Notes: generated from the letters alone by a model not told the origin. A stretch of DNA of 58,716 nucleotides from Candidatus Aphodosoma sp. (GCA_045653825.1 JAZOMI010000049.1:1-58716); one strand, 5' to 3'. Positions 7,488-55,181 are shown, counted from the stretch's first letter. Program-made: numbers and translations.

Positions 7488-7789
7488 TATTCCTCCCACA
7501 AATATCACAAATTCACACAAATATCTTTTGTGATTATTTGTATCATTCGTAGGAATATACATCATATTATATTTCTATCTTCAGCCAGCGAAGCTCGGCG
7601 TTCTTCCGTGAACCAACGGTCTTTGAACCTTTAGGTGAAAAAATTCTGTATATTCCGTGAGAAAAATATCATCAGTGAGAAAAGAAACGCTGAAAATCTG
7701 TCTTTAGTGTCGAGATTTTGCGAAGCAAAAGCAAGACCATCATGTAAAAAAGTAGGGACGCTCGGCTCTAGCGTCCGCAATATATTATT

Positions 7790-8389
7790 ATGTCATTCTG
7801 TCTTAAAAAAAACACAAAAAAAATAGGTATCACAGGCGGTATAGGTTCAGGCAAAAGCGTAATATCACGCATATTAAAAACTATGGGCTACCCTGTCTAT
7901 GACTCTGATTCGTGGGCAAAACACTTGATGAACCACCACCCCGATATCCGTCAAGCCCTAACCCTCAAATTCGGCATAGAAACCTACACCTCCGAAGGCT
8001 TAAACCGCACCTATTTAGCCCAACAAATATTCAATAACAAAGAAAATCTCGCCTTCGTCAATTCTTTAGTTCACCCTATCGTCGGACAACATTTCTTAGA
8101 GTGGGCAAATTCTCAAAATTCAGGACTCGTATTCATCGAAAGCGCAATACTTTTCAGCAGTGGATTAAATAAAATTCTCGATGAAACAATATATGTTGAT
8201 GCACCACAACATGTTCGTCTTCAACGCGCGATGGCTCGCGACAACGCCTCTGCCGAAGCAATTATAGCTCGCATCAACAGCCAACAGCAAGACAACGAAT
8301 ATGCCATTGCACATTCAACTCACATAATTATCAACGACAACCAAACACCTCTAATACCACAAACTCTATCAATATTACAAAAAATATAA
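7790..8389 (+). CDS. coaE: dephospho-CoA kinase
   Basis: 199 aa with the P-loop IGITGGIGSGKS near the N-terminus and CoaE-like length. Confidence 0.9.
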   Translation: MSFCLKKNTKKIGITGGIGSGKSVISRILKTMGYPVYDSDSWAKHLMNHHPDIRQALTLKFGIETYTSEGLNRTYLAQQIFNNKENLAFVNSLVHPIVGQHFLEWANSQNSGLVFIESAILFSSGLNKILDETIYVDAPQHVRLQRAMARDNASAEAIIARINSQQQDNEYAIAHSTHIIINDNQTPLIPQTLSILQKI

Positions 8390-13889: not shown

Positions 13890-14084
13890 ATGAGTGAAAA
13901 GGGTTATACAATCGTACAATTGGTTTTGGCATCTTGCGTATTGGGATGCTCAACCGTGTCGCTCGTTGGAGCAATCGTGGTGCATGGGTTTCAGACCTGG
14001 CAGTTGGCAAATCTTACGTTCGTTGTGTTGTCGGCAGTGATGATGAAGTGGGCGGTTGAGGAGTACAGGGAAGCGAGGAAATAA
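13890..14084 (+). CDS. small two-TM membrane protein
   Basis: 64 aa with two hydrophobic helices. No family recognised. Confidence 0.5.
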   Translation: MSEKGYTIVQLVLASCVLGCSTVSLVGAIVVHGFQTWQLANLTFVVLSAVMMKWAVEEYREARK

Positions 14085-14163
14085 TGCATAATGCATAATG
14101 CACAATGCACAATTCACAATTCACAATGCACAATTCATAATTCATAATTCATAATTCATAATT
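14083..14163. repeat. heptamer-word array (AATGCAT/AATGCAC/AATTCAC/AATTCAT)
   Basis: About 11 tandem 7-nt words fill the spacer before the AAA+ gene. Confidence 0.85.
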
Positions 14164-14166
14164 ACT

Positions 14167-15048
14167 ATGTTAACAGAAGAACAAAAACAGAGAATAGCCG
14201 AAGCGATGGTGTTGCGCCGTGAGATGTTTGCGGGCACGGATTCGCAATGGGCATTGTCGTTGGGCATCAATGCCTCGGTATATAATCGCATCAAGCGCGG
14301 TGAGCGCGAGCGCGTGTTGGCAGATGCGAAATGGATAACGATAGCACGCTTGTTGGAGGTGGAGCTGTCGACAGCTTCGCCATGGAACACAGCACGCACG
14401 GCGGTGTTTGTCAGCGTGACGGCGCAGTTGCAGTTTTGCCAAGAGAACTCGTCGTGGGCGATACTATGCGACGAAGCTGGTATTGGGAAGACCTATGCAG
14501 CACGCTACTACTCGCGCACGAACAAGAATGTGGTGTATGTGGATTGTTCGCAACACAAGACTCGTCGCCGCCTCATGATAGAGATAGCACGAGCGCTGGG
14601 CGTTGACACCCACGGGACGTATTACGAAGTGTTTGACGACTTGCGCTACTACATCAAGACGATAGACCATCCACTGATTATTCTCGACGAAGCAGGCGAT
14701 CTGCGCTATGAGGCGTTTTTGGAAGTGAAGGCGTTGTGGAATGCGGTGGAGAACTGTTGCGGTATCTACATGCTCGGCGCTGATGGACTACGAGCAAAGA
14801 TAGAGCGAGGCATCAACTGCAGGAAGGTGGGTTTTGTGGAGCTCTTCGACCGTCAGGGGGCACGCTTCCAGCGCATCACGCCCGAAGGCCGAGAGGCACG
14901 CCAAGAGTTTCATGCTGCACAAGCAGCTGCTGTGATACGCGCCAATGCACCAGCCGACACCGACATACGAGCCATGCTTGCCGCTACTGACTGCCGACTT
15001 AGGAGGATATATATTGAGGTGAAGAAAAGAATGAGGAATGAGGAGTGA
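14167..15048 (+). CDS. MuB/TniB-like AAA+ ATPase with N-terminal HTH (transposition target-selection type)
   Basis: 293 aa with Walker A DEAGIGKT, Walker B LIILDEAG, and an N-terminal HTH-like WALSLGINASVYNRIKRG. Adjacent to the DDE transposase. Confidence 0.7.
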   Translation: MLTEEQKQRIAEAMVLRREMFAGTDSQWALSLGINASVYNRIKRGERERVLADAKWITIARLLEVELSTASPWNTARTAVFVSVTAQLQFCQENSSWAILCDEAGIGKTYAARYYSRTNKNVVYVDCSQHKTRRRLMIEIARALGVDTHGTYYEVFDDLRYYIKTIDHPLIILDEAGDLRYEAFLEVKALWNAVENCCGIYMLGADGLRAKIERGINCRKVGFVELFDRQGARFQRITPEGREARQEFHAAQAAAVIRANAPADTDIRAMLAATDCRLRRIYIEVKKRMRNEE

Positions 15049-15129
15049 GGAGTTAGGAGTTAGGAATTACCTCTAATCTCTAATCTCTAACCTCTAACCT
15101 ATAACCTTTCAACTTTCAACTTTTAACTG
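15046..15129. repeat. heptamer-word array (AGGAGTT then CTCTAAT/CTCTAAC/TCAACTT words)
   Basis: Purine-type words follow the stop; pyrimidine-type words precede the next ATG. Confidence 0.85.
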
Positions 15130-17136
15130 ATGGAGTATTACAATAACATATTATGCTTGACTTATGACGAGATGCTTGAGTTGATGCCAAAGGGCACGCT
15201 TGGGTCGTTGTGTTCGCGGGGCAAGGTGGAGCGTGTTCGCCGAGCGAGCTATGAGCGTAGTGCGTTGTATTCATTGGACAATGCTCCGCAACGAATAAGG
15301 ATTATGGCATACGAGCGATTTCCCGAACTGAACGAAGCAGCGACGAGCCGAGATGCGCTGGAGGGGTATGGATTGATGGAGCGCGAGATGCTCCCCGACA
15401 TGGCAGCGGTTGAGTATTACGCCAGCTACATCACTCCGATGGGCGAGCACTTGACCGACACGAAGCAAGCCGAGTATGTGAACAATGCGATGATACTGAA
15501 TGCGTGCACACGGTTGTGGCAACGGTCGTACTCGCAACATGCACGTCAGGGGCGAGCGCGTCAGATGCCAGCGAAGGGCGAGTTTTGGGAGCGCACAGCT
15601 CGCGCCTTGCCACGCTTGGCAGAGCGATGGCCACACTCGTTGCCGATGAACGCTCGTAGATTGCAGACGAAGCACAAGGAGTATCAGCATGTAGGGTATG
15701 CCTCGTTGGTGAATGGTCGCTTCGGCAACAGCAATTCGCGCAAAGTGACGGCAGAGATAGAGCAGCTCATCATGTCGATATATTCGACATCGGGCAAGCG
15801 ATTCGTGACAGAGACATTGGCCGTGTATGAGCAATGGTTGGCTGGCAAGATAGAGATAGTGAACCAAGCGACAGGCGAACTGTTCGACCGCACAGGTGCG
15901 CCGAAGATAACCGAATCTACAGTGCACAACGTGGTGAACACGCCACAGAACCGTCGCATAGCCGACCTCCGACGCAACGACACGCTCTACAACAAGTCGC
16001 ACCACACGCCACACGTTGTGCGCCATGCGCCACAATACGCATTCTCGAAAATATCGATGGACGACCGCGACCTCACACGCAAGACCACGGCAGGCGAGCG
16101 CATATCTGCCTACTATGCTTACGATGTAGCAAGTGGATGTGTGATAGCTGCAGCCTATAGCAAGCAGAAAGACATGGAGCTTGTGTTGGAGTGTTTCCGC
16201 GACATGTTTCGTTTCATCACACGGCACAACCTACGCATGCCGTACGAAGTGGAGGTAGAGCACCACTTGATGAACAACATTAAGGAAGAGCTTGAGGTGA
16301 TGTTTCCAGCCGTGAGGTTCTGCCAAGCGGGTAACTCGCAAGAGAAGCGAGCCGAGCACCTGAACCGAGCGAAGAAATACTCAGCCGAGAAGCAGCTTGG
16401 GCAAGTGGTCGGTCGATGGTGGGCACGATCGGAGGCATATCGCGAGCGGTCGGAGCGTGTGGGTGCCGAATACAAAGAGCAACGATTGCCGTACAGCAAG
16501 TTGGTAGCCGAAGACCTCGAGGCGATAGCACTCTACAATTCGCAATGCAAGCCAGGCGAAACACGCTCGAGACTCGAGGTGCTGCTCACCACCCAGAACC
16601 CAAACCTACAAGAGGTGAACCGAGCCGTGATAATGCGCTCGATAGGCCACCGAACCGAAACCACATTGCGCCGCTCGCAATACGTACAAGTGCAATATGC
16701 GCGCTACCAATTGCCCGACCCAACGATGATAAGCCGTTTTCGCGAAGGGAACAGTTGCACCGCCTATTGGCTCGAAGCCGACGATGGCACAATACCGAGC
16801 GTGATACTCTACCAAGGCGACCGCTTCATAGCCGAATGCAAGAAGATGACCACCTTCAACGAGTCGATAGCCGAGCGCACAGCCGAAGATGAAGCAGCAA
16901 TGACCGAGCAACTGAAGTATGTAGCCCAATACCACAAGATGAACCGCCTCGGACGCGAAGAGAAGATACGCAACCTTAGCATCATCGACAACGCACAGGT
17001 GGAAGAAGCAATAGCCAAGGCGAGCGACGAAGAGGTAGTAATGCAACCCCTCCCACCTGACGACCCATATCACATTGCATCGATCGACACCACCGATGAC
17101 GGCGATTGGCTCGAAAGAGCGATAAAAAGTTTGTAA
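15130..17136 (+). CDS. Mu-like DDE transposase
   Basis: 668 aa (MuA-like size) with an rve-type core signature ISMDDRDLTRKTTAGERISAYYAYDVASGCVIAA. Context next to the AAA+ gene and inside the inverted end sites. Confidence 0.75.
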   Translation: MEYYNNILCLTYDEMLELMPKGTLGSLCSRGKVERVRRASYERSALYSLDNAPQRIRIMAYERFPELNEAATSRDALEGYGLMEREMLPDMAAVEYYASYITPMGEHLTDTKQAEYVNNAMILNACTRLWQRSYSQHARQGRARQMPAKGEFWERTARALPRLAERWPHSLPMNARRLQTKHKEYQHVGYASLVNGRFGNSNSRKVTAEIEQLIMSIYSTSGKRFVTETLAVYEQWLAGKIEIVNQATGELFDRTGAPKITESTVHNVVNTPQNRRIADLRRNDTLYNKSHHTPHVVRHAPQYAFSKISMDDRDLTRKTTAGERISAYYAYDVASGCVIAAAYSKQKDMELVLECFRDMFRFITRHNLRMPYEVEVEHHLMNNIKEELEVMFPAVRFCQAGNSQEKRAEHLNRAKKYSAEKQLGQVVGRWWARSEAYRERSERVGAEYKEQRLPYSKLVAEDLEAIALYNSQCKPGETRSRLEVLLTTQNPNLQEVNRAVIMRSIGHRTETTLRRSQYVQVQYARYQLPDPTMISRFREGNSCTAYWLEADDGTIPSVILYQGDRFIAECKKMTTFNESIAERTAEDEAAMTEQLKYVAQYHKMNRLGREEKIRNLSIIDNAQVEEAIAKASDEEVVMQPLPPDDPYHIASIDTTDDGDWLERAIKSL

Positions 17137-17250
17137 CAATGCACAATGCAGAATGCAGAATTAGGAATTGAGAATTAAGAATTGAGAATTGAGAATTTAG
17201 AATTGAGAATTAAGAATTGAGAATTGAGAATTGAGAATTAACTTTCAACT
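17137..17250. repeat. heptamer-word array (AATGCAC, AATGCAG, ~12 x GAGAATT-type words)
   Basis: Long uninterrupted period-7 array. Confidence 0.9.
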
Positions 17251-18549: not shown

Positions 18550-19053
18550 ATGAGAAAGAAAATTCAAAAAATGGACCGCATCAGCGATGCAGAAATGTAT
18601 GTAGCGATGCAACAGTATGCTGAAATTGACACACAGCTTGAGAAAGTAAATGCCCGTATTGATGCCGAAGTGGCGAAGGTTCGCGCGAAGTATGCCAACG
18701 AGATTGAAACCCTTGAGGCGAAACGTCAACACGAATTTGAAGTAGTAGAACGCTATGCAGAACAACATCGCGATACGCTCTTCCAACTCAAACGTTCGCA
18801 CGTGACCGTGCATGGCACATTTGGTTACCGCTTGGGTCGTCCGAGCTTAGTGCTCACTAATCCGATGGTGAAATGGGACAAAGGCGTGCTCGAGCACATG
18901 CGCAACTTTGCGCCACAATACATCCGCACCGTGGAAGAGGTGGATAAAACTCGCCTCATAGCCGACCGCGAGAAACCCGAAGTGCAAGCATTGATGCAAG
19001 CGGCACACATCAAGGTGGAACAATCGGAGACATTCTACATTAAAAAGATTTAG
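18550..19053 (+). CDS. gam: host-nuclease inhibitor Gam-family protein
   Basis: 167 aa with an N-terminal coiled coil (IDAEVAKVRAKYANEIETLEAKRQHEFEVVERYAEQHRDTLF), typical of Mu Gam-like proteins. Confidence 0.6.
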   Translation: MRKKIQKMDRISDAEMYVAMQQYAEIDTQLEKVNARIDAEVAKVRAKYANEIETLEAKRQHEFEVVERYAEQHRDTLFQLKRSHVTVHGTFGYRLGRPSLVLTNPMVKWDKGVLEHMRNFAPQYIRTVEEVDKTRLIADREKPEVQALMQAAHIKVEQSETFYIKKI

Positions 19054-19273: not shown

Positions 19274-19412
19274 ACAATGCACAATTCATAATGCACAATG
19301 CACAATTGAGAACCTAAGGTCTTTGAGCCTTTGGAGATAAAATTAAGAATTAACTCTTAACTCTAACCTCTAACCATTAACCTCTAATCTCTAACTTCTC
19401 AACTTTCAATTT

Positions 19413-21610: not shown

Positions 21611-21783
21611 AGGAGTGAGGAATATGGAATGTGGAATTTTTGCGATAAGCGAAGGCAGAATCAAGCTCTGCTTGAGTTATGCTGAGCGAAGCAAAAATCA
21701 CGACCATAGGGAGGAATGAGGAATTAGGAATGAGAAATTAGGAGTGAGGAATTAGGAATTGTGCATTATGCATTGTGCATTGA

Positions 21784-27286: not shown

Positions 27287-28828
27287 TCAATAAAGGTTTT
27301 TTGGAGATGGGCGGCGACCGATGCGAGGGGTGAAGGTTTCGTGGCGTGTGCGTTGTTGCAGGATGTAGATTGCGCCCTCGTCGGCATCGGGAGCATCGTC
27401 GTGTCCGCTCATGCCTTTTTCGAAAGCGAGTGTTTGGTCGAGACCAGCCAGCATATCAGGGTCTTTCTTCTTCTGTTCGTTGTAGAAGACCACGCCACGC
27501 TCCCAGAGAGGGCTGATGCTTTCGATGCGCTGAAACTTGTCGGGCTTTTTGCGGCGGTCGGCACGGATGGGGAGTTGGTAGCCACGACACTCGCCCTCAC
27601 GGCGGAACTCGTCGAGGATGATATCCTGAAGGAAATTGGCTTCGATGTAGTAGCTTGCGACGGCATGAGCAGCTTGCACACGCTCGTGTAGGTCGTAGAA
27701 CCAACGCACCATTTCGGTGACGGTGGTTTGTCGCACAAAGGCGTCGATGTGGTGTAGTTCGCCCGACTTGGTTTTGCCCCAGAGCTTGATAGCCTTGTAG
27801 TCGTTTTTGGTCGAAGCCTTGAACGAGGGGTCGCAGTAAGCCACAAGTTCGTGGTAGTCGCGCAGAGGCAACATGCGTCGCCAGCGCACCCAGTCGGCAC
27901 GGAAGACTGCACCCTCGGTGATAGGATTGTTCATCATCTCCTTTTGGAAGGAGCGGTAGCCCATGAATCGGGCTTGAGCTTCGACCTCTTCGCGACTCCA
28001 TTTGGTAGCCCACGACGGATTGCCTTGAGCATCGAGGGCATTGACACGAGTGACGTGGACGCCATCGGTTTGAGCAATGCGAGCGAGCACACTATTTTTG
28101 CCAATGAGGTTGCCAACCATGATGAAACGCCCACGGCCACCGTCGAGCGCACCAAACAGCGCCTCCTTAACCCAGTCGGTGAGACGAGAGACACGTTGAG
28201 GATTTTCGACAAGTTCGTCGTCGTCGAGGTCGTCGATGACGATATAGTCGGGACGATGAGAGCGGTAGCGCAACCCACGAGGCGACTGACCACGACCACG
28301 AGCAAAGAAAGCCACATCGTCTTGAGTGACGAATTCGCCATCGGTCCATTCGCCCTCCTTCTTCTGCACGCCAAAGTCTGCAATGTAGCGTTGGTTGAAC
28401 TCAAGTTCCGCCTGAATGTCGGAGAGCAGAGTGTTGGCATTGTCTTGCGACTTGCCCACGAGCACCATCACATTGAGCTGGCGTTGGCGTTGACACTTGA
28501 GCCATAGCGGAATCATCACATCGCAATGGGTAGATTTGGCATGGCCACGCGCCCACATAAACACAGCTTTGAGGTTAGGGTTTTTCTTCACCTTGTTGGC
28601 CGCTTCGATGTGGAAGGGAGCCGATGCTGTGATAGCACCAGTTTGGGGATTGGTGCAGTAGTGAGGGAAATAGTATTCCACAAAATAGGCATAATCCTTG
28701 CGAGCGCGCTCGATACGGCGGTCGCGGTCGGCAGGAGTCTCCTGTCGGTTGACAATGGTCATGCTCTGAATGGTCTTGCACAGTTCGCGCCAATCGGCGA
28801 GGGCTTTTTTCTTATTAGATAGATTCAT
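27287..28828 (-). CDS. terminase large subunit
   Basis: 513 aa with an ATPase region (MWARGHAKSTH, IVIDDLDDDE) and a C-terminal nuclease-like region. Follows the small subunit. Confidence 0.8.
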   Translation of the reverse strand: MNLSNKKKALADWRELCKTIQSMTIVNRQETPADRDRRIERARKDYAYFVEYYFPHYCTNPQTGAITASAPFHIEAANKVKKNPNLKAVFMWARGHAKSTHCDVMIPLWLKCQRQRQLNVMVLVGKSQDNANTLLSDIQAELEFNQRYIADFGVQKKEGEWTDGEFVTQDDVAFFARGRGQSPRGLRYRSHRPDYIVIDDLDDDELVENPQRVSRLTDWVKEALFGALDGGRGRFIMVGNLIGKNSVLARIAQTDGVHVTRVNALDAQGNPSWATKWSREEVEAQARFMGYRSFQKEMMNNPITEGAVFRADWVRWRRMLPLRDYHELVAYCDPSFKASTKNDYKAIKLWGKTKSGELHHIDAFVRQTTVTEMVRWFYDLHERVQAAHAVASYYIEANFLQDIILDEFRREGECRGYQLPIRADRRKKPDKFQRIESISPLWERGVVFYNEQKKKDPDMLAGLDQTLAFEKGMSGHDDAPDADEGAIYILQQRTRHETFTPRIGRRPSPKNLY

Positions 28829-29350: not shown

Positions 29351-29598
29351 TCAATATTATTATAGGTTAGAGATTAGAGGTTAGTTAGAAATGAGGAATG
29401 AGGAATGAGGAATTGCTGAGCGAAGCAAAAATCACGACCGAAGGGAGTAATTCTCAATTCTCAACTCTCAATTCTCAATTCTGCATTGTTTTTACGGTGC
29501 AAATTTCGCCATATATTTACATATATAAAAAAAGTATGTAAGTTATTGACACTCTATTTTTTGCAATGACAAAAAATAGTGAAATTTGCACCAGCAAA

Positions 29599-29671
29599 AG
29601 CGGGTTGGAGCAGAGGTCAGCTCGCGGGGTTCATTCCCCCGAGGTCGGTGGTTCGAATCCACCACCCGCTA
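29599..29671 (+). tRNA. prophage-encoded tRNA with CAU anticodon (Met/Ile2-type) and an unusual U at position 37
   Basis: Hand-folded cloverleaf. Acceptor AGCGGGT/ACCCGCT, D arm GAGC-AGAGGTCA-GCTC, anticodon arm CGGGG-TTCATTC-CCCCG, variable AGGTC, T arm GGTGG-TTCGAAT-CCACC, discriminator A. Confidence 0.75.
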
Positions 29672-33011: not shown

Positions 33012-34094
33012 ATGAATTCAATAGAAATAACCCGTACGAACGGAAACATACCAAAAGCATTGCCAAACAACGATCACATCTCAGCATTTGCGTTTGTGGA
33101 TGAAAATGCTATGGATGACGTTGTTCTTCTCTCGTCTGTCGAAGATTGGACTGTGGAAAATGCAAAAAAACTCTTTGGTGACGATACAATAGAAGAGAAT
33201 ATGTATTACGTGATGTCAACCCTTTTTATTAAACAATTCTATGCAATGGCACCAGGGGCATCGCTATGGGTAGGTGCATACACAACCGACGATGCAGTTG
33301 TAAAAATGCAACGCAAAGCAGGTGGTGAAATTCGCCAGATGGCTATGTATGGAAGTCTATCGGTAGAGGATATTATAGCTAAGGTTGAACAACTCGAACA
33401 GGAAAGTATGCCATTGTTGGTCATGATTGCTTCAAATGGGCTTGAGATTGATAATTATTTGAATGAAGAGATGCTACTTAATGAACGTATATCAGTGGTA
33501 ATTGGAGAAGAAGGGGAGACTTATGTGCCTGCTGCAGGCTACGCTCTCGGTGCAGTGGCAGCTGCAGCGGTCAATGAGTCGATATCGTGGGTGAGAAAAT
33601 TCCCTGTGCCTGTGTCAAGTGCAAGCATTAGCACTACTAATGTCAATAGCATCAACCAAGCGGTGCTTAATATGCTCGACCAAAAGGGCTACATCTTCCT
33701 CCGTACTTATACAGGTCTCAATGGCTACTATTTCAACGACAGCCGCACCATGTCGGATCCTACATCGGACTACAACACCATCGAGGCAGTGCGCACAATG
33801 GACAAAGCCGTGCGTGGCATACGCACCTACCTCTTGCCAGAACTCGGCGCTCCGCTCAAGCTCGATGCCGAAACTGGCTGTCTCGCTCCCGAAACAGTGA
33901 AACATCTCGAAACTGTGGCAGCGCAACAACTCACAGCAATGGAAAAAGCTGGCGAATTGTCGGGCTGGTCGGTAGAAATCGACCCAGAGCAAAACGTACT
34001 CGCCACATCGACCGTAGAATTCGTTGTGAAAAACGTGCCTATCGGCGTGATGAGAAAAGCATCTGTGAAAATCGGCTATGCACAATCGGTGTAA
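33012..34094 (+). CDS. tail sheath protein (DUF2586-like)
   Basis: 360 aa, immediately upstream of tube, chaperones and tape measure. The family assignment is from memory. Confidence 0.6.
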   Translation: MNSIEITRTNGNIPKALPNNDHISAFAFVDENAMDDVVLLSSVEDWTVENAKKLFGDDTIEENMYYVMSTLFIKQFYAMAPGASLWVGAYTTDDAVVKMQRKAGGEIRQMAMYGSLSVEDIIAKVEQLEQESMPLLVMIASNGLEIDNYLNEEMLLNERISVVIGEEGETYVPAAGYALGAVAAAAVNESISWVRKFPVPVSSASISTTNVNSINQAVLNMLDQKGYIFLRTYTGLNGYYFNDSRTMSDPTSDYNTIEAVRTMDKAVRGIRTYLLPELGAPLKLDAETGCLAPETVKHLETVAAQQLTAMEKAGELSGWSVEIDPEQNVLATSTVEFVVKNVPIGVMRKASVKIGYAQSV

Positions 34095-34257
34095 ATTAAG
34101 GAATAAGGAACAGGGAGCAGAGAGCAGAGAGCAATGCACAATGCATAATTAAGAACCGAAGGTCTTTGAGCCTTTGGCGATAAAATTGAGAATTCTCACT
34201 CCTCATTCCTCATTCCTAATTCCTAACTAACTTCTAACCTTTCAACTTTCAACTATT

Positions 34258-34692
34258 ATGGCAATAACAAACGGTATTCCACTAATCAATGGCGTGTCAT
34301 ACGCCTGGGCCGACATTGTATGTCTTGTAGCAGGCACACCTGTTACAGGCATCTCGGCAATCGAATATAGCGACCAACAAGAGATGGTCAACAACTATGG
34401 AGCAGGTCGCTACCCTGTGTCGCGCGCCAAAGGTCGCATCACTTGCGAAGCGAAAATCACACTCGACATGGACGAAGTGATTGCAATTCAAAACCGATCG
34501 ATCAATGGTCGATTGCAAGACTTGGCACCATTCCAAATTCAAGTGTCGTACATTCCCGATGGCGGTAAGATTGTGCACGATGTGATTCACAACTGCCAAT
34601 TCAAGTCGAACGCCCGCACATGGAAAGAGGGCGACACTCGACAAGAGGTAGAACTCGAACTCATCGTCAGTCACATCGACTGGGGAAAATGA
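34258..34692 (+). CDS. tail tube protein
   Basis: 144 aa positioned between the sheath and the chaperone pair. Confidence 0.6.
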   Translation: MAITNGIPLINGVSYAWADIVCLVAGTPVTGISAIEYSDQQEMVNNYGAGRYPVSRAKGRITCEAKITLDMDEVIAIQNRSINGRLQDLAPFQIQVSYIPDGGKIVHDVIHNCQFKSNARTWKEGDTRQEVELELIVSHIDWGK

Positions 34693-34838
34693 TATTAAAG
34701 AACAAGGTGCAGGGAATAGGGAGCAGAGAGCAATGCACAATGCAGAATTAAGAACCGAAGGTCTTTGAGCCTTTGGCGATAAAATTAAGAATTCTCACTC
34801 CTCATTCCTCATTCCTAACTAACCCTAACCTCTCAATT

Positions 34839-35156
34839 ATGAACATAATCAACGGAGGCGTTACAGAAGAACGCATTGCACAATGGAAAGTGCAACATCG
34901 TCGTGTGGCAGAAGTGTCGATAGAAGACGATGGAACAACGTATGTAGGCTATTTTCGTCGTCCAGATATGGAGACGATGGCAGCAGTGAGCAAACTATCG
35001 AAAACCGATGAGGTGAAAGCAGCTAATGCTTTGTTTGAAAACTGTTGGCTCGGAGGTGCTGACGAACTACGCCACGAGGCAGTGCTTCGCATGGCAGCAA
35101 TCGGTCAGCTCAACCAATTGATGGAGGTGAAACGTGCCGAAATAAAAAACTTGTAG
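34839..35156 (+). CDS. tail assembly chaperone (G-like, 0-frame product)
   Basis: 105 aa from ATG 34839. The track ORF start at 34773 lies in heptamer words. Sits directly upstream of the tape measure region. Confidence 0.6.
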   Translation: MNIINGGVTEERIAQWKVQHRRVAEVSIEDDGTTYVGYFRRPDMETMAAVSKLSKTDEVKAANALFENCWLGGADELRHEAVLRMAAIGQLNQLMEVKRAEIKNL

Positions 35157-35627: not shown

Positions 35628-37682
35628 ATGAGCACACAAAATTTTAACTATATTTTTAACATAACGGACAATGCTTCATCTACATTGAATGACATCAACG
35701 CCCATTTGACACAAGTGAGTCAATCAGCATCAAATGCAGTGTCAAGTTTCAGTGGTTTTGAAAAAACAGTAATATTTGCTAAAAATTTTGCTAATGTAAT
35801 TATGGGTGTTGCTAATGCTATAAGTTGCACTTTGGAGCCAGCTATAGCATTGGATTCATCGCTCAAAGACCTGTCGGCTATCACAGGCGAAACTGGTGAG
35901 GGGTTGAAGTTGATAGAGAAATATGCTCGTCAGTCGGCTCGCACGTTCGGTGGTTCTGCCGCACAGGCGGTGGAGTCGTACAAATTGGTGCTCTCGCAAT
36001 TGTCGCCCGAAATAGCCAAATGTCCTGAAGCATTGCGCTCGATGGGCGACCATATAGCCACACTCAGCAAAACTATGGGCGGTGATGCTACAGCAGCGGC
36101 TGAGGTGCTCACCACGGCGATGAACCAATTTGGTGTTGACCTCTCTGACCCGATTCGTTCGGCTGAAGTGATGGCTGAGATGATGAACGTGATGGCAGCT
36201 GCTGGTCGTGAAGGCTCAGCCGAATTGCCTCAAATCAAACAGGCATTGGAGCAGTGCGGTATGGCTGCCAAAGGGGCGAATGTCTCATTCGAAGAAACGA
36301 ATGCCGCAATCCAAGTGCTCGACAAAGCAGGCAAAAAAGGAGCTGAAGGTGGTGTCGCGCTTCGCAATGCGCTCACCATTCTCGGTCAAGGACGATTTAT
36401 GCCGAAAGACGTTCGGGAAGAACTCGCAGCTGCTGGCGTTGATGTCAATGTGCTTGCCGATAGTTCGATTCGTCTCACTGACCGATTGCGCATGCTTGCA
36501 CCTGTGATGAACGATGCTGCGTTGTTTGGCAAACTATTCGGACGTGAGAACGTTAATGCCGCTATGGCACTCGTGCAAGGCACTGCCGAAATCGACCGAT
36601 TGACCGATGCTATCGGCGGAACAAATACAGCCTACGAACAAGCTGAAATCGTTATGGACTCAATGGCTGAGAAACAATCGAGATTGAAAGCTGCTTTTGA
36701 TAATGCCTATATTGCTATATCGAAATTTACAGGTGGGGTTTTGATGCATATTCAAGCATGGGCTCCTGTGGCAACCGCATTAAGTGACCTTTATCCTATT
36801 GCAAATGGAGTATGGAACAGTTTCGTCAGACTCAAAACAGTCATGGCGACAGGTTGGCCAAAGGTAGTTGCCAACATTAAGGGTGCTGTCGTAGGAACTA
36901 TAATGAACATACAACTGCTCAATGCTTCGGCTACAGCTTCGGGTGGTTGGCTCAAGATGATGGGGCAAATGGGTGTGTCGGCGTGTCGCTCGATAGGCAT
37001 TGCTATCATGAACATCCCTATAGTGGGTTGGATTGCGGCTGCTGTGGCTGGGCTTGTAGCTCTATTCGCTACGTTGTGGGAGAAGTGCAAAGGATTCCGT
37101 GTGGCTGTATTCACCTTGTGGGAGGGAATCAAAGCTTTGTTCAGTGGTATTGGTGAATGGTTTGCCAATCTATGGCAATGGTTGTCTGGTGTGTTCGACC
37201 GCTTCATGGCGTTTGGCTCTAAAATCCTCGCTCCGTTTAGGTGGGCTTTCGGTCAGATAAAATCGCTATTCATACGTTTGTTCGACTGGATTACAGCCAA
37301 ATTCGATTGGCTGGTGGACAAAATCAAACGAATAGTGCCTAAAGATTGGCTCGCTCGTGGTCGTGAAGCCGCCGACCGCTCGTGGGCAAAAGATCATCCT
37401 GATGCATCGCCAACCGAACAACCTCTCATGACAGACACTTCGGCTCTCGCTCCTATGCCAACGATGTCGCCTATAGGCATCGGTTCGGACATCAACTCAG
37501 TGGGGTCTGCTTCAGCCGAAAAACATGGTGGTTCGATAAAAAACATCAATGTCAATATCGAAAGCCTCGTCGAACAATTCAACGTAACGACCAACAATCT
37601 ACAACAATCTTCATCACAAATAAAGGATATGGTGGCACGCGTGCTCATCGATGCCGTTAACGACTTAAACTATGCAATCTAA
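35628..37682 (+). CDS. tail tape measure protein
   Basis: 684 aa with a TP901-type core (LKDLSAITGETGEGL...), alanine/glycine-rich TM-like segments, and the expected position after the chaperones. Confidence 0.85.
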   Translation: MSTQNFNYIFNITDNASSTLNDINAHLTQVSQSASNAVSSFSGFEKTVIFAKNFANVIMGVANAISCTLEPAIALDSSLKDLSAITGETGEGLKLIEKYARQSARTFGGSAAQAVESYKLVLSQLSPEIAKCPEALRSMGDHIATLSKTMGGDATAAAEVLTTAMNQFGVDLSDPIRSAEVMAEMMNVMAAAGREGSAELPQIKQALEQCGMAAKGANVSFEETNAAIQVLDKAGKKGAEGGVALRNALTILGQGRFMPKDVREELAAAGVDVNVLADSSIRLTDRLRMLAPVMNDAALFGKLFGRENVNAAMALVQGTAEIDRLTDAIGGTNTAYEQAEIVMDSMAEKQSRLKAAFDNAYIAISKFTGGVLMHIQAWAPVATALSDLYPIANGVWNSFVRLKTVMATGWPKVVANIKGAVVGTIMNIQLLNASATASGGWLKMMGQMGVSACRSIGIAIMNIPIVGWIAAAVAGLVALFATLWEKCKGFRVAVFTLWEGIKALFSGIGEWFANLWQWLSGVFDRFMAFGSKILAPFRWAFGQIKSLFIRLFDWITAKFDWLVDKIKRIVPKDWLARGREAADRSWAKDHPDASPTEQPLMTDTSALAPMPTMSPIGIGSDINSVGSASAEKHGGSIKNINVNIESLVEQFNVTTNNLQQSSSQIKDMVARVLIDAVNDLNYAI

Positions 37683-40177: not shown

Positions 40178-40298
40178 TCTCAATTTTTGCGATAAGCGAG
40201 AGCAATTGAGTTTACTCGAATTGCCTAGCAAAGCAAAAATCTTGAGCGCAGCGAAAAACTCTCAACTTTCAACTCTCAACTTTCAACTCTCAACTCTT

Positions 40299-45350: not shown

Positions 45351-46814
45351 TTAATTTCTTACCCTTTCAATTCGCATTGTATCAAGTTTCAGAAACAAAA
45401 ACAATAATATCGTAAAACTCAAAAAAGATGATCCTCCATAACTAAAAAATGGCAATGGAATACCAATCACAGGCACAAGCCCTATCACCATACCTACATT
45501 GATAAAAAGGTGAAATGCAAATATTCCTACAACTCCATATCCATACACTCGTGTGAAACGATTATCCTGACGTTCTGCAATATACAACAATCTATATAAA
45601 AACAATAAATAGACAATCAATACACCCGCACTACCCACAAATCCCCACTCCTCACCTACAGTACAAAAAATAAAATCTGTATGTTGCTCTGGTACATATT
45701 TCAATTTGGTTTGTGTTCCTTGCATAAATCCTTTACCCCAAAATCCACCCGAGCCAATAGCTATACGCGCCTGATTGGTATTATAACCAATACCTGTTGG
45801 GTCATCAGTCAATCCAAGTAAAAGTTGAATACGCTTTTGTTGATGTGTTTGCAACACATCATTAAATATATATTCTGATGAATAACAATAGCCTAAAGTC
45901 CCCAACAAAAATATAGCAATAAACAAATATGTACGACGCCACTTAATATATGCCAATACAAACAAATAAATCGCAGCACAAAGCGTAACTGCCAACATAA
46001 CATATACTAAATTATAACGCACAACCCATTTAAATAAAACCAAAGCTAAAACAAAAACACCCATAGGCACAAACGAAAGTATGAGCAAATGCTTTTTTTC
46101 AAATTGATATACCCTAATAAATATCAACATTATAACATACGAAATCAATAACCCTAAAAACAATCCCGTTGAAGCCCCTTCTACACCTAAAAATGGCACT
46201 ACGCTAAATCGCAAAACTACAATAAACAATAGTACAGCACAAAATCCTAAAGCAGGTATCAATCCTGGCAATCCCTCTCGATAAAGTAAAAAAATAAACG
46301 ATAAAAAAACCAAAGCTGATCCCGTTTCGCTCTGTGCCACAATAATAAACATAGGCAACAATATAAGCGAACAAACAATAGCATAATTTTTTGATGATTT
46401 CAATCGAAATTGAGGATGACTCATTACTTTGGCAAGAGCCAATGCAGTTATAAATTTCGAAAATTCAGCAGGCTGAATACTAAGAGGACCTAAAGGCAAC
46501 CACGAACGTGAACCCTTGATATCTTTGGCTACAATAAGGGTTACTATCAATAATATCAATATCAAACCATACAACAAATATGGCAGTGACATTATCAATC
46601 TACTATCGGTAAATAATATAATCAGCGCCATCACCAAACTAATACACATCCACACAAATTGCATCCCCGAACTACCATTCATGTCAAATATCGACATCTG
46701 ATATTCTGCAACACTAGCACCATATATATTTATCCAACCAAACACCACTAAGACGATATAAAAAAATACCGCCCATTTATCTAACGCTTGTATTACATTG
46801 AAATTTCTTGACAT
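45351..46814 (-). CDS. rodA: rod shape-determining protein RodA (SEDS family)
   Basis: 487 aa polytopic membrane protein with FtsW/RodA motifs (GSRSWLPLGPLSIQPAEFSK, TDFIF). Lies downstream of mrdA. Confidence 0.85.
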   Translation of the reverse strand: MSRNFNVIQALDKWAVFFYIVLVVFGWINIYGASVAEYQMSIFDMNGSSGMQFVWMCISLVMALIILFTDSRLIMSLPYLLYGLILILLIVTLIVAKDIKGSRSWLPLGPLSIQPAEFSKFITALALAKVMSHPQFRLKSSKNYAIVCSLILLPMFIIVAQSETGSALVFLSFIFLLYREGLPGLIPALGFCAVLLFIVVLRFSVVPFLGVEGASTGLFLGLLISYVIMLIFIRVYQFEKKHLLILSFVPMGVFVLALVLFKWVVRYNLVYVMLAVTLCAAIYLFVLAYIKWRRTYLFIAIFLLGTLGYCYSSEYIFNDVLQTHQQKRIQLLLGLTDDPTGIGYNTNQARIAIGSGGFWGKGFMQGTQTKLKYVPEQHTDFIFCTVGEEWGFVGSAGVLIVYLLFLYRLLYIAERQDNRFTRVYGYGVVGIFAFHLFINVGMVIGLVPVIGIPLPFFSYGGSSFLSFTILLFLFLKLDTMRIERVRN

Positions 46815-46989
46815 AATAAATAAAATTGAAAGTTGAAAGTTGAGAATTGAGAATTGAGAATTGAGAATTGAGAACCGAAGGTCTTTGAGCCTTTGGCGAT
46901 AAAATTGAAAATTGATAATTGAAAATTGATAATAAAATATTTAATTTCTAACTCCTAACTCCTAACTCCTAACTCCTAACTCCTCACTC
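46815..46989. repeat. composite intergenic unit: heptamer-word arrays flanking a hairpin word
   Basis: TGAAAGT and GAGAATT words, then GAACCGAAGGTCTTTGAGCCTTTGGCGATAAAATT, then TGAAAAT/TGATAAT words, then 5 x CTCCTAA words. Confidence 0.9.
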
Positions 46990-48867
46990 CTAATTCCTCA
47001 TTCCTAACTCCTCATTCCACATTTTAACATTAGGATTCAACACCATTGTTCTCATTCTATCGAATAACGCCTCCTGCTTTATCTCGCCATAAAGATACTG
47101 TTCAAGACAGAGCATAGCAATAGGACAAGCAAATTGCGCTCCAAAACCAGCATTTTCAATTACCACTGCAATAGCTATCTGCGGATTCTCTCGCGGAGCA
47201 TACCCGAAAAATATTGAGTGTGGTTTGCCTTGACTATTATCTGTAGTACCTGTTTTGCCACACACAACCAATTCTGAGAACTTATAAAAATGCGGAGTAC
47301 CATACTCACACACTCGCCACATACCTTCTTGCACTACATCATAATGTTTCTGACTAACATTTGCTTCATGTCGATGAGTCAAAAAAGTATCACATTTATT
47401 CAAATGCGGAGTTATATAATAACCTTCATTGGCAATAACAGCCGCAGCATTAGCAAGTTGAATTGGTGTTACCAACACCTCACCTTGTCCAATCGAGTTA
47501 GAACGAATAGTGAGAGCCTTCCACCCTCGCTCTCCATAAATTTTATTATACGTTTCTTCTCTATATATAGCCCCATCTTTCAACCCATACACATCTGAAT
47601 CTTCCCACTTAAAACCCAATCCAAAACTTAAAATATCTTCACGCCAACGAGTATAATTCTTTTTAAAATTAGCATTTCGCTCACCATAACCGTCTCGTTC
47701 AAGCGTCTCTTTATAAGCTAACCAAAAATATGGATTACAACTCTCTTGTATTGCCTCTTCAAGCCCTACTGGTGAACCATGATTGTGAGTACACTTTATT
47801 GGTTTAGAAAGCGGTCCGTTACAAGGAAATTTTGTGTAACGCGTAATCCCACCATGCTCCAAACAAACCAAGGCTTGTAAGGTTTTAAATGTCGAACCTG
47901 GCGAATACAACCCTCCTGTCGCACGATTGAGAAATGGTTTTGTCGCATCTTTCTGCAATATCGGATAATACTCCGAACGCAAACGTCCAACCAACAACGA
48001 TGGATTCCAGGTAGGATTAGATGCCATAGCCAAAATCTCTCCCGTCGATGGCTCTATTGCCACTATACTACCTATCTTTCCTTCCAACAACTTCTCGGCT
48101 ATCATCTGCAACTCTACATCTAACGTCGTTGTTATATTCTCACCTGCAACAGGCATTTTATCCAACTCGCCATCTTTATATTTTCCCTGAATACGACCCC
48201 GCGAATCGCGCAAAAGTATCTCTACTCCATTCACTCCCCTCAACTCTTTCTCGTAAGTCAACTCCAACCCTTCCGAACCAGCATAATCACCAGGACGATA
48301 ATAATCATCTCGCTCTATTTGTCGCTTACTCACCTCTCCAATCGAACCTAAAACATGTGCACCACAAGGATAATTATAATTACGCAATGTACGATTTTGA
48401 ACCGTAAAACCTGGAAATTTACGCAAATGCTCTTGAAGCATTGCATAATCCTCAGGCGACAATTGCGTCATAAATCTTTGTGGAGTCAATTGCGAATATC
48501 CATAATTCTTACGTCGATCTTTGATATATGCCATTCGATCACAAAATTGATCATACGTAATACCCAACAATCCACACAACTCTAATGTATCTATCGGAGT
48601 ACCTGCTTTTTTCTGATCTCGCAACTCCTTCATCGTTACCATCAAATCATACGTTGGCTGATTATATACCAACAACTTTCCATTACGGTCATAAATCAAT
48701 CCACGAGGCGCATAAAGTGTCTTTTGATAAAATGCATTTCCCTCTGCCGCATCAGTATAATTACCAAACAACTGCAATTGTGCCAACCTACCTATGAATA
48801 AAACCACAAATAGTGCTAACACAACAGAAATTATAATACTTCTATCTTTATATTTATCGTCTAACAT
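46990..48867 (-). CDS. mrdA: penicillin-binding protein 2
   Basis: 625 aa with an N-terminal TM helix and transpeptidase motifs (STFK, SNS, KTGT). Lies in the mreBCD-mrdA-rodA cluster. Confidence 0.9.
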   Translation of the reverse strand: MLDDKYKDRSIIISVVLALFVVLFIGRLAQLQLFGNYTDAAEGNAFYQKTLYAPRGLIYDRNGKLLVYNQPTYDLMVTMKELRDQKKAGTPIDTLELCGLLGITYDQFCDRMAYIKDRRKNYGYSQLTPQRFMTQLSPEDYAMLQEHLRKFPGFTVQNRTLRNYNYPCGAHVLGSIGEVSKRQIERDDYYRPGDYAGSEGLELTYEKELRGVNGVEILLRDSRGRIQGKYKDGELDKMPVAGENITTTLDVELQMIAEKLLEGKIGSIVAIEPSTGEILAMASNPTWNPSLLVGRLRSEYYPILQKDATKPFLNRATGGLYSPGSTFKTLQALVCLEHGGITRYTKFPCNGPLSKPIKCTHNHGSPVGLEEAIQESCNPYFWLAYKETLERDGYGERNANFKKNYTRWREDILSFGLGFKWEDSDVYGLKDGAIYREETYNKIYGERGWKALTIRSNSIGQGEVLVTPIQLANAAAVIANEGYYITPHLNKCDTFLTHRHEANVSQKHYDVVQEGMWRVCEYGTPHFYKFSELVVCGKTGTTDNSQGKPHSIFFGYAPRENPQIAIAVVIENAGFGAQFACPIAMLCLEQYLYGEIKQEALFDRMRTMVLNPNVKMWNEELGMRN

Positions 48868-49435: not shown

Positions 49436-50283
49436 TTTTCTAACGATTTTTGAAGATTCAACAACTCATTCTGATTTTCAAAAGCAAACACTGTCACATA
49501 CGTCAACGACTGAAAATCAACAGCTAGAGCAATATCTATATCACAATACATCGTATTTTCTACAATCGTAGCCTTATCAACAACACCTATCATCATACCT
49601 TCAGGAAATATTGCAGAAAAACCACTTGTCACAATCGTATCGCCAGCCACAACATTTACATGATTTGGTATTTCATATAATTTAGCTTTCAACGGACTCT
49701 TTCCATTCCATTTTACAGAACCTAACTGATTATTACCCTTTATCTTTGCACTTATCACCTGCTCTGGATTTATAATTGGCAACACTACAGAATAATTTTC
49801 ACTCACTCGTTGCACAACTCCCACAACACCCTGCGGAGCAAATACCCCCATATCCTCTTCCACTCCTTGCGCACTTCCCTTGTCGATAATTATATAGTTC
49901 TGCATATCATACACACTATTATAAACCACCTTCGCCGACAAATAATTATCACCACACTGCACCTCAACACTATCTACAATCTCTAATCTGTTATCTGTAA
50001 TCTGTAATCTGTTATCTGTAATCTGTAATCTATAATTCGCTATCTCTTTGTACAATCGAGCATTCTCCTCTGCTAAATACTTATTCGCCTCTGCCAATCC
50101 AAAATAATCTGTTACCGAATTAGTAATTCCATACACCCATGCCGTCAAAGTTGTCGCATAACGAAATGCCACCGAACGTTGCAAATCATTTTTATTCACG
50201 ACAAGCCCAAGTGCCAACATCTCCAACACCACGAAGATAATGACAGCCAAATATTTATAAAAAAACTCTAATATTTTATTCAT
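49432..50283 (-). CDS. mreC: rod shape-determining protein MreC
   Basis: Start taken at MNKILEFFYKY (50283). TM helix, coiled coil, and a conserved C-terminal core (GDTIVTSGFSAIFPEGMMIGVV). Confidence 0.85.
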   Translation of the reverse strand: MNKILEFFYKYLAVIIFVVLEMLALGLVVNKNDLQRSVAFRYATTLTAWVYGITNSVTDYFGLAEANKYLAEENARLYKEIANYRLQITDNRLQITDNRLEIVDSVEVQCGDNYLSAKVVYNSVYDMQNYIIIDKGSAQGVEEDMGVFAPQGVVGVVQRVSENYSVVLPIINPEQVISAKIKGNNQLGSVKWNGKSPLKAKLYEIPNHVNVVAGDTIVTSGFSAIFPEGMMIGVVDKATIVENTMYCDIDIALAVDFQSLTYVTVFAFENQNELLNLQKSLEK

Positions 50284-54178: not shown

Positions 54179-54931
54179 CTAACTCCTCATTGTATGAAAT
54201 ATATTCTCTATCGACCCATATTTCGCCACAAGCGCATCCTTCTCGCCCTGCTCAATCACATTACCCTTATTGATAACTATTACATCGTCGCATACTTGCT
54301 CCACCTCTTGCATAATATGAGTAGAAAATATCACCAATCTATCACGCCCCAAATCCTTAATCAACTGACGAATTTCTATCAACTGATTAGGGTCAAGACC
54401 TGTAGTAGGCTCATCGAGTATCAACACTTTCGGATTATGAATGATAGCCGCTGCAATACCCACTCTCTGACGATACCCCTTCGACAACTGCTTAATCAAC
54501 TTATGAGACTCACTCGTCAACCCCGTCCGCTCAATCACCTCCTCCACAACTTCTTTTTTCGCTAACTGTGCATTGTGCATTTTTCGCCAAGGCTCAAGAC
54601 CTTTGGTTGTGCATTGTGCATTATATATCCCTGCCACAAAGTCCAAATATTCACGCACATACATATCCAAATACAACGGATTGTGTTCTGGCAAATATCC
54701 CACCAATCTCTTAGTATCCACATCATCCACCGCCACTCTCTTGCCATCAATCAACACTTCTCCCTCATCGGCAGCAATATAACCCGTAACAATCTTCATC
54801 AACGTAGATTTACCCGCCCCATTCGGACCCAATAAACCCACAATGCGCCCAGCACCAAACTCCTGACATATAGAGTTCAACACCCTCTGCGCATCATAAC
54901 TTTTCGATATATTCTTTATTTCTAACAACAT
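54179..54931 (-). CDS. ABC transporter ATP-binding protein (GldA-like) carrying a ~19-codon repeat-derived insertion
   Basis: 250 aa with Walker A GPNGAGKST, signature LSKGYRQR and Walker B VLILDEPT. The extra segment NAQCTTKGLEPWRKMHNAQ is encoded by intergenic-type words (54566-54622). Confidence 0.85.
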   Translation of the reverse strand: MLLEIKNISKSYDAQRVLNSICQEFGAGRIVGLLGPNGAGKSTLMKIVTGYIAADEGEVLIDGKRVAVDDVDTKRLVGYLPEHNPLYLDMYVREYLDFVAGIYNAQCTTKGLEPWRKMHNAQLAKKEVVEEVIERTGLTSESHKLIKQLSKGYRQRVGIAAAIIHNPKVLILDEPTTGLDPNQLIEIRQLIKDLGRDRLVIFSTHIMQEVEQVCDDVIVINKGNVIEQGEKDALVAKYGSIENIFHTMRS

Positions 54932-55181
54932 AATCTAATAACATCTATAATACCCTACATTACATTAACATTGTACATCAAAATACTATTAACCTAATAT
55001 TGTCCCCCTGTCTTAGGGGGACGAGCCCAATGGGCGGAAGGGGTCAAAAAATTAATAATAATTGAAACGCAAAAATACAAAAAAATTATGAATTCAACAC
55101 TAAAAAAATATAGTTATTTTCACTCAAAAAAAATAATTGTGCATTGTGCATTGTGCATTTTTTAGTAACTTTACGATCCGT

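Follow-up and report, generated by a model that had tools for sequence, protein, structure and literature searches.

A hairpin word of 30 nt recurs in a stretch of 58,716 nucleotides of DNA from Candidatus Aphodosoma sp. (hereafter the window). I read it, with a probability of roughly 80%, as a tiny selfish mobile element of heptamer arrays; the direction of the underlying events is unpolarised. Its dispersal, its preference for a site after GAA, the preservation of the heptamer phase, its precise presence or absence between alleles, and its residence in frame inside genes were all observed. The element is specific to the gut bacteria of Candidatus Aphodosoma/Paludibacteraceae and to the Mu-like prophage that resides in them. 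I class it as a new family of a known but rare kind, that of the cyanobacterial small dispersed repeats, in a new phylum. It appears to be selfish or neutral, and no regulatory role is inferred.

Copies in the window and in other genomes

The window holds six copies of the word: three are exact, one has two mismatches, one is diverged, and one is a 27-nt form inside a gene. The exact 35-mer GAACCGAAGGTCTTTGAGCCTTTGGCGATAAAATT lies on the + strand at 34153-34187, 34752-34786, and 46872-46906, and a version with two mismatches lies at 19310-19344 (+), while no match is expected from 100 shuffles of the window. An earlier note on this DNA had claimed near-identical copies at these four sites, and all of them were found, its coordinates being off by only 1-3 nt. 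The canonical 30-nt element CCGAAGGTCTTTGAGCCTTTGGCGATAAAA is matched exactly at 34156-34185 (+), in the spacer between the tail sheath gene (33012-34094) and a tube-like gene (34258-34692) of a Mu-like prophage. This prophage occupies roughly 13-45 kb of the window and encodes a transposase (15130-17136), a terminase (27287-28828), a major head protein, and a tape measure (35628-37682). A second exact match (34755-34784, +) separates the tube-like gene from the next prophage gene (34839-35156). The third canonical element (46875-46904, +) is in a host spacer between rodA (45351-46814, - strand) and the PBP2 gene (46990-48867, - strand), where it interrupts an AATTGAG array and is antisense to both genes. 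The copy with two mismatches (CCTAAGG...GGAG; 19313-19342, +) belongs to the prophage and lies 3′ of a Mu Gam-like gene (18550-19053).

The two remaining copies are more distant from the canonical form. A diverged copy, CCAACGGTCTTTGAACCTTTAGGTGAAAAAA, was found upstream of coaE (7790-8389) at 7613-7643 (+), with TTCCGTGA on both sides; in a looser search it showed three mismatches within the 19-nt centre, and the CCAACGG subfamily to which it belongs is present in other genomes too. A fuzzy scan revealed the 27-nt form CCAAAGGTCTTGAGCCTTGGCGAAAAA at 54580-54606 on the - strand, in frame in an ABC-2 ATPase gene (54179-54931, - strand), where it encodes TKGLEPWRK inside an array of four AATGCAC units. 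The degenerate copy upstream of coaE and the reverse-strand copy in the ABC ATPase gene, both proposed in the earlier note, are real. The gene context it had given (Mu-like prophage, RodA/PBP2, CoaE) was also correct, as was its claim that host and prophage share the word.

Outside the window, 119 exact 24-nt cores were found in 112 other loci. The exact 24-mer occurs in 53 stretches of a species-representative genome collection, representing about 10 species-level MAGs, and in 59 further stretches from a metagenome scan. About 25 diverged copies were found besides the exact cores, while shuffles give none at five errors or fewer. These copies elsewhere are not local duplications, and the word is indeed interspersed, as had been claimed. 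The genome matches are gut MAGs of Candidatus Aphodosoma or Paludibacteraceae (Bacteroidales) with one exception, a 1.5-kb contig in an Acutalibacteraceae bin (locus L024), which is suspected to be mis-binned. A cyanobacterial origin, which had been the first guess because of the heptamer repeats, was rejected because the genome-scan matches all lie in Bacteroidales MAGs bar this contig. No match to the 24-mer or the 19-mer was found among the IMG/VR viral contigs, and the INPHARED phages and PLSDB plasmids gave no match either.

All source sequences are MAGs or metagenome contigs. The copy number per genome is only roughly indicated, by the six copies in the 58.7-kb window and by the word depth of the assembler, which in gut metagenomes holding the prophage exceeds the flank value about 30-fold at the core (245 versus 7.8; 608 versus 36). 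In gut metagenomes the contigs often break at the core, as expected for a high-copy repeat. Could the word be an artefact of assembly or binning, such as a chimeric join or an adapter-like sequence? The metagenomic nature of all sources, the contig breaks, and the copy in the Acutalibacteraceae-labelled bin would fit this explanation, yet I give it practically no credence: the core lies inside long contigs from many independent studies and assemblers, with unique coding flanks, conserved reading frames, and orthologous positions, and the window itself has six copies. On the other hand, most copies were found through the exact 24-mer, so that the uniformity of the core is inflated. The conservation of the core in orthologous pairs (30 of 30 nt identical versus 86-98% flank identity) was discarded as evidence because both members of each pair had been found through the exact core.

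The unit, its boundaries, and its empty sites

In a simple periodicity count, 33 period-7 segments cover 2.3% of the window, while periods of 5, 6, 8, and 9 are absent, periods of 10 and 11 cover 0.1-0.2%, and shuffles give none. Tandem Repeats Finder reported dozens of period-7 arrays in the window, and examples of period-7 segments are found at 14080-14167, 15027-15128, 17165-17242, 46826-46993, and 49984-50036. The intergenic spacers consist almost wholly of phase-continuous 7-base units whose sequence drifts from unit to unit. Judged in the direction of transcription, units that follow a stop codon tend to be GA-rich, and those that precede a start codon CT-rich (G-poor). The same sites in related genomes have spacers of 19-30 nt or quite different arrays, including 9-mers (L072). 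Heptamer arrays also inflate the intergenic regions of the prophage, and a tRNA gene of the prophage (29599-29671; Rfam RF00005, 59 bits) lies between such arrays. A related phage in a Bacteroidales MAG (L069), with a tube protein 76% identical, has compact spacers of 18 and 32 nt without arrays.

The repeating unit is 30 nt long and reads CCGAAGGTCTTTGAGCCTTTGGCGA[T/A]AAAA, that is, a hairpin CCGAAGG-TCTTTGAG-CCTTTGG followed by the tail CGA[T/A]AAAA. The tail ends in ATAAAA in 71 copies and in AAAAAA in 16, and a 27-nt form of the element also exists. Every aligned copy interrupts a heptamer array and has the same heptamer on its other side (AATTGAG, AATGAGG, AAGTTGA, AATTAAG, and AATGCAC among them). 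In the sheath-tube spacer, phase-continuous units (AAGGAAT ... AATGCAC, AATTAAG AA) at 34098-34155 (+) precede the core, the last of them ending in GAA, and the units that follow it at 34186-34254 (+), TTGAGAA and then CT-rich ones (TTCTCAC/TCCTCAT/...), are in the phase of the left array once 30 nt are removed. Similarly, an AATTGAG/AAGTTGA array (46824-46874, +) ends in GAA just 5′ of the host copy and continues in phase on its 3′ side (TTGAAAA TTGATAA ...; 46905-46933, +). The earlier note had placed the word always at the centre of a heptamer spacer. The copies do lie inside arrays with the phase kept, but they are not always central, and the copy at 7613-7643 is merely flanked by TTCCGTGA.

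These boundaries are general. A deletion of 30 nt is the best phase-restoring length in 28 of the 29 copies with clear arrays, and the heptamer resumes after exactly 30 nt in 110 of 119 copies (52/56 plus 58/63), where resumption means that the right-hand unit matches the left-hand unit at five or more of seven positions. The 5′ unit ends in GAA in 114 of 119 copies (53/56 plus 61/63), as opposed to only 46% of the other units of the same arrays (P about 3.5e-15). In arrays in which GAG and GAA units alternate, the core always lies 3′ of a GAA unit. The right-hand unit is unlike the left-hand unit in 30 of 52 copies; thus, there is no 7-bp target duplication. A model in which such a duplication makes the arrays grow by cycles of insertion and excision was rejected for the same reason and because filled and empty alleles have equal unit counts. 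Since the boundaries can be shifted by one or two A residues, a 2-nt AA duplication is not excluded. Eight loci (L019, L012, L053, L083, L084, L088, L113, and L124) have direct tandem doublets, in which the two cores are 14-21 nt apart with only one to three heptamer units between them. A GT2 gene has two cores in L084 versus one in L028 and L047.

The clearest pair of filled and empty alleles is in aroA. Of 220 flanking bases, L030 and L114 share 219, and their alleles differ by one clean 30-nt gap, the former reading ...GAGAATTGAA|core|AATTGAGAATTGAG... and the latter ...GAGAATTGAA|AATTGAGAATTGAG.... In the empty allele the heptamer array is unbroken and has an equal unit count, and there is no target duplication. 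L114 entered the data set through another copy, so that its empty aroA was not selected for. In a second aroA lineage, L136 and L098 are filled and L019 is empty, while a third lineage (L132) lacks the array altogether. The 5′ region of lgt is filled in L040, L114, and L132 and empty in L098, a difference of 10 codons. Orthologues of the ABC-2 ATPase with 80-90% identity exist in four states: without an insert (GLKGIAK), with heptamers only (NAQCTMHNAQ), with heptamers and the core (NAQCT-TKGLEPWRK-MHNAQ), and with a further unrelated module. In their DNA, the window and L054 differ by exactly the 27-nt core inside the four AATGCAC units, and so do L056 and L058. Precise gain or loss between near-identical genomes, as in aroA, agrees with the miniature-element behaviour that had been suggested for the word.

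Spacers of the phage turn over while the neighbouring proteins remain unchanged. Ten other assemblies of the phage have a 100% identical tube protein, yet the centre of the sheath-tube spacer is occupied by the core, by a GTAG-type palindrome, or by nothing, and in the spacer downstream of the tube gene a different module replaces the core in 6 of these 10 assemblies. For the host copy, an empty-site comparison was not informative: the rodA/PBP2 spacers of relatives are 19-82 nt long and lack the element, and in relatives at 85-88% identity they are unrelated short spacers. It is not excluded that an exchange between strains or between arrays yielded the same filled and empty alleles without transposition. 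No event has been polarised as an insertion or an excision.

The core is not the only dispersed module in these genomes. A second family is a perfect 28-nt GTAG-type palindrome, GTAGAGACGCAATATATTGCGTCTCTAC, which resembles a classic REP. It is found at 1428-1455 of L059, L061, and L065 and also in L001, L003, L020, L034, L037, L038, L043, and L055; in the phage, it is inside AACTCCT units, with an empty allele in L068. A third family of about 70 nt is built around CCCCCTAAGACAGGGGGAC with a GACCCCCTCCG arm. It occurs at 55004-55022 of the window, in L017 (about 12 copies), and in L012, L037, L051, and L058, and it is in frame (ARPPKTGGQ) in some orthologues of the ABC ATPase of the window (P0006, P0007, P0009, P0021, and P0074). 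A fourth module, (ACTCCCTTCGGTCGT)GATTTTTGCTTCGCTCAGCAATT..., is often followed by GAGTAAACTCAATTGCTCTCGCTTATCGCAAAAA. It lies on the - strand of the window at 29411-29433, 40219-40241, and 21677-21699, as well as in L031, L043, and L060-L068, and it is the module that replaces the core in the tube-downstream spacer of the six phage assemblies.

Copies inside genes and the question of a regulatory role

Long ORFs contain about a fifth of the copies, and more than 15 copies are in frame in Pfam-supported enzymes, which bears out the RPE-like behaviour that had been proposed for the word. The Pfam domains that span or flank the inserts are GT2, EPSP synthase, Mur ligase middle domain, GT1, SpoU methylase, Amidase_3, and Methyltransf_30 (an S-adenosylmethionine-dependent methyltransferase). 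According to my own ORF calls, 20 of the copies inside ORFs are antisense, the stop-free orientation, and three are sense. No frame of the reverse strand of the core contains a stop (IAKGSKTFG, RQRLKDLRF, and SPKAQRPSV), while the forward strand has a TGA in one frame and a TAA in another; this excess of antisense copies would be expected under selection against stop codons. The 27-nt form lacks the T of the TGA and is thus open in the sense frame used in the ABC ATPase. In contigs from RNA libraries, the 27-nt form with AATGCAC flanks adjoins other sequences, so that this form is itself dispersed. That the frame has to stay open speaks for translation of the inserts rather than for their removal. 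Since 30 is a multiple of three and the reverse strand is free of stops, the copies in genes survive as peptide inserts of about 10 residues.

Heptamer-encoded stretches, for example NSQLSILNSQF and HNAQCTMHNAQ, are likewise present in the insert-bearing proteins. As many as four separate inserts of heptamer origin (such as NSQLLTLNSQLSTLNSQL, HSSLLTPHSSLLTH, and DDTDNTDN) were seen per protein, the multi-insert proteins being those of L043 (Mur ligase), L030 (EPSP synthase), L013, L022, and L053. Repeat invasion of coding sequences is widespread in the lineage and is not confined to the core.

Is the hairpin itself functional? On the + strand, the word forms a stem of 8 bp with a G-U pair, and the RNA folds at -10.7 kcal/mol (z -2.35), which agrees with the hairpin described in the earlier note. 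The other strand folds to only -6.8 kcal/mol, and the diverged copies fold no better than shuffles; for example, the copy at 7613-7643 has -4.4 kcal/mol (z -0.15). The 21 distinct stem variants are 89% paired, a value equalled by 134 of 500 column shuffles, and the commonest stem change is G to A at the G-U pair. Stem covariation, which had been proposed as a check, gave no support, the test being uninformative for a young family. In the spacers between co-directional genes, 17 copies are sense and 15 are antisense; convergent gene pairs enclose a further five copies and divergent pairs two. With respect to genes, the orientation is random, and the RNA role implied for the hairpin is not supported.

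Several specific candidates were rejected. At the gathering score, Rfam recognised only a tRNA in the window, and up to E 10 it gave only chance-level matches to microRNA precursors with E 0.03 or worse; a known RNA family was rejected on these grounds, and the statement that the sequence is not a recognised one holds. The stem is followed by CGAUAAAA, and an intrinsic terminator was rejected for the lack of a U-run after the stem and for the sense and antisense counts given above. A Bacteroidetes promoter was rejected because the spacing of TTTG ... TAAAATTG is wrong and canonical TAnnTTTG promoters are found elsewhere in the same spacers. The word TTTTTTGTAACTTTGCA, found in the flanks of L029, L035, and L005 and in 11 places in the loci, contains the Bacteroidetes -7 promoter box TAnnTTTG; thus, canonical promoters lie beside, and not within, arrays and cores. 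A long spacer hairpin with the core at its tip was seen in one spacer (z -2.98), but three others gave z values of -0.6 to -1.3, and this is not general.

More broadly, the word might be a cis-acting RNA or DNA hairpin under selection, acting as a terminator, an mRNA stabiliser or processing site, or a protein-binding site, as REP elements sometimes do. The good fold of the + strand RNA, with a G-U pair that works on this strand only, the sense orientation of all three prophage copies within late operons, the core-containing contigs in libraries labelled RNA, and the one spacer that forms a long hairpin speak for it. I nevertheless regard it as quite improbable, as the near-equal sense and antisense counts, the missing U-run, the in-frame copies inside enzymes, and the variable presence between near-identical alleles all count against it, as do the absence of covariation, the loss of the fold in diverged copies, the other spacers that fold no better than shuffles, and the lack of an Rfam match. 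Random orientation relative to genes and the absence of stem covariation point to a selfish element of heptamer arrays rather than a regulatory hairpin. A dedicated RNA or regulatory role for the element is unlikely, while individual copies could have been co-opted for function.

Mode of spread and relation to known systems

The closest parallel, which was not named in the earlier note, is the cyanobacterial small dispersed repeats in heptamer arrays, judging by shared behaviour. Elhai et al. (2008) are reported to have described SDR4, SDR5, and SDR6 of Nostoc and its relatives as 21-27-nt hairpin modules at fixed points in iterated sequences (including heptamer repeats and HIP1). These repeats are reportedly variable between related strains and are not known to have a mobilising enzyme. 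The present element likewise is a dispersed hairpin-forming repeat of about 30 nt or less (30 nt with a 27-nt subfamily and an 8-bp stem), has a fixed position in an iterated host sequence (after GAA, with the phase restored, at the frequencies given above), and is present or absent among close relatives (aroA, the ABC ATPase, and the phage spacers). The host genomes are full of 7-bp tandem repeats in both cases; in cyanobacteria, these are known as STRR, and their function is not known (PMC2670836). In contrast to the cyanobacterial repeats of 21-27 nt, the element described here is 30 nt long, lives in Bacteroidota of the animal gut, occurs in a Mu-like prophage as well, and has been found in frame in many enzymes. 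Since the host here belongs to the Bacteroidales, any membership in the SDR class would be by behaviour and not by homology, and I know of no relationship in sequence.

The earlier note had likened the word to REP/BIME, Correia, and RPE elements. It is a dispersed miniature element as this likeness implies, but it lacks features by which REP elements, MITEs (Correia among them), and RPEs are each defined. MITEs such as Correia/NEMIS measure 100-160 bp, end in inverted repeats, and duplicate their target (TA in the case of Correia). The core shares with MITEs a short length, a lack of autonomy, abundance, and an intergenic location, and MITEs are sometimes co-transcribed, but the core has 30 nt, no terminal inverted repeats, and no duplication beyond the ambiguous AA. 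RPEs are reported by Ogata et al. (2000) to be selfish palindromic repeats of about 100-150 bp that lie in frame in Rickettsia genes, essential ones included. They are apparently translated as extra peptide segments and are not known to be tied to heptamer arrays. The core resembles them in being inserted in frame with the reading frame kept open, but the insert has 9-10 residues plus the heptamer-encoded peptides, and its size, sequence, and taxon are unlike those of RPE.

IS200/IS605 elements and their miniature derivatives insert 3′ of a short target without target duplication, leave seamless empty sites, and carry DNA hairpins instead of terminal inverted repeats. In the same way, the core lies 3′ of GAA without duplication, and its empty alleles are uninterrupted arrays with the same unit count. 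However, IS200/IS605 elements have two subterminal hairpins with guide sequences, a length of at least about 100 nt, and a strong replication-strand bias, while the core is a single hairpin in 30 nt with mixed orientations within 8 kb. The REP/REPIN elements, which are linked to RAYT transposases (PMC3116915), are 20-40-nt imperfect palindromes, highly dispersed and non-autonomous like the core, and their proposed movement is via a single-stranded hairpin recognised by an HUH enzyme. REP palindromes are tagged with GTAG/CGTC (PMC3733652). The core has no such head, being flanked by GAA and CGAT, it is not extragenic only, and its doublets are direct whereas those of REPINs are inverted; the true GTAG-type palindrome coexists with the core as a separate family. 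No RAYT/HUH-like gene was found as a recurrent neighbour of the core in 113 loci.

How might the element move? On the reading favoured here, the word is the core of a 30-nt non-autonomous mobile element that parasitises the tandem heptamer arrays of the intergenic spacers of this lineage. It lies directly 3′ of a GAA-ending unit without a target-site duplication and with the heptamer phase intact, its loss or absence has exactly the same boundaries, and its movement is inferred to be catalysed in trans by an enzyme. A hairpin that can fold in a single strand, a short 5′ target, the lack of duplication, and seamless empty sites most resemble the HUH/Y1 'peel-and-paste' type (IS200/IS605 and REP-RAYT). 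An enzyme of this type that recognises a single-stranded DNA hairpin would be my best guess for the mobiliser, but it is an inference by analogy and I hold it only tentatively, at less than even odds. Each element has a single hairpin and not two subterminal ones. Copies within one 8-kb locus point in the same direction in five cases and in opposite directions in six, which speaks against strict lagging-strand insertion. These two features and the lack of a candidate gene near or between copies count against the HUH/Y1 route. When 760 ORFs from 113 loci were clustered, the recurrent neighbours were only housekeeping orthologues, and no larger parent element with the hairpin was found in the loci examined. 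A parent element or transposase between paired cores was rejected, as the genes there are a ribulose-phosphate epimerase and a primase-like protein (the latter judged by eye).

The absence of a transposase neighbour would also be expected if the word spread passively, by ectopic gene conversion or replication template switching between similar heptamer arrays, whose homology would copy the core and a few flanking bases such as GAA from locus to locus without any dedicated transposase. The same heptamer flanks each copy on both sides, arrays are ubiquitous and change their unit number fast, whole centre cassettes have been swapped in the phage spacers, and the direct tandem doublets in eight loci fit slippage. 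I consider this explanation unlikely all the same, although it is the main alternative. The boundaries of the core are the same in arrays with little in common beyond AA or GAA (TTGAGAA, TGAGGAA, AGTTGAA, TTAAGAA, TGCACAA, and CACGGAA), in arrays that alternate GAG and GAA units the core always comes after GAA, and the aroA alleles of L030 and L114 differ by the 30 nt alone, with no conversion tract in the 220 flanking bases. The reading as a mobile element of heptamer arrays leaves room for a system that has not been described, in which an unknown enzyme recognises slipped or single-stranded heptamer arrays and inserts or removes unrelated hairpin modules of about 30 nt (the core, the GTAG palindrome, and others) at a fixed point of the unit. 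The same mechanism might be behind the cyanobacterial small dispersed repeats, having either arisen independently or been shared across phyla. This is a speculation that is doubtful at present.

To my knowledge, elements of 30 nt without target duplication or inverted ends are below the size of any transposition mechanism that is understood, and the only comparable case that I know of is that of the cyanobacteria, still unexplained. A full-text search by the name of the genus Aphodosoma returned, as far as titles and abstracts tell, no work about repeats, and nothing was found in the literature on heptamer repeats in Bacteroidales. The pairing of heptamer arrays with tiny hairpin modules in a second, unrelated lineage suggests a general process rather than a curiosity. 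As these gut bacteria are abundant and present in hundreds of public metagenomes, near-identical strains with filled and with empty alleles can readily be found, which makes the mechanism testable. The undescribed heptamer system, if true, would account for the hyper-variable spacers and for the repeat-encoded peptides that pepper essential enzymes. Repeats that break assemblies help explain the fragmented MAGs of the lineage. Essential enzymes such as EPSP synthase, a Mur ligase, and an ABC ATPase tolerate repeat-encoded inserts, a tolerance which is relevant to annotation, protein-family alignments, and strain typing in this group.
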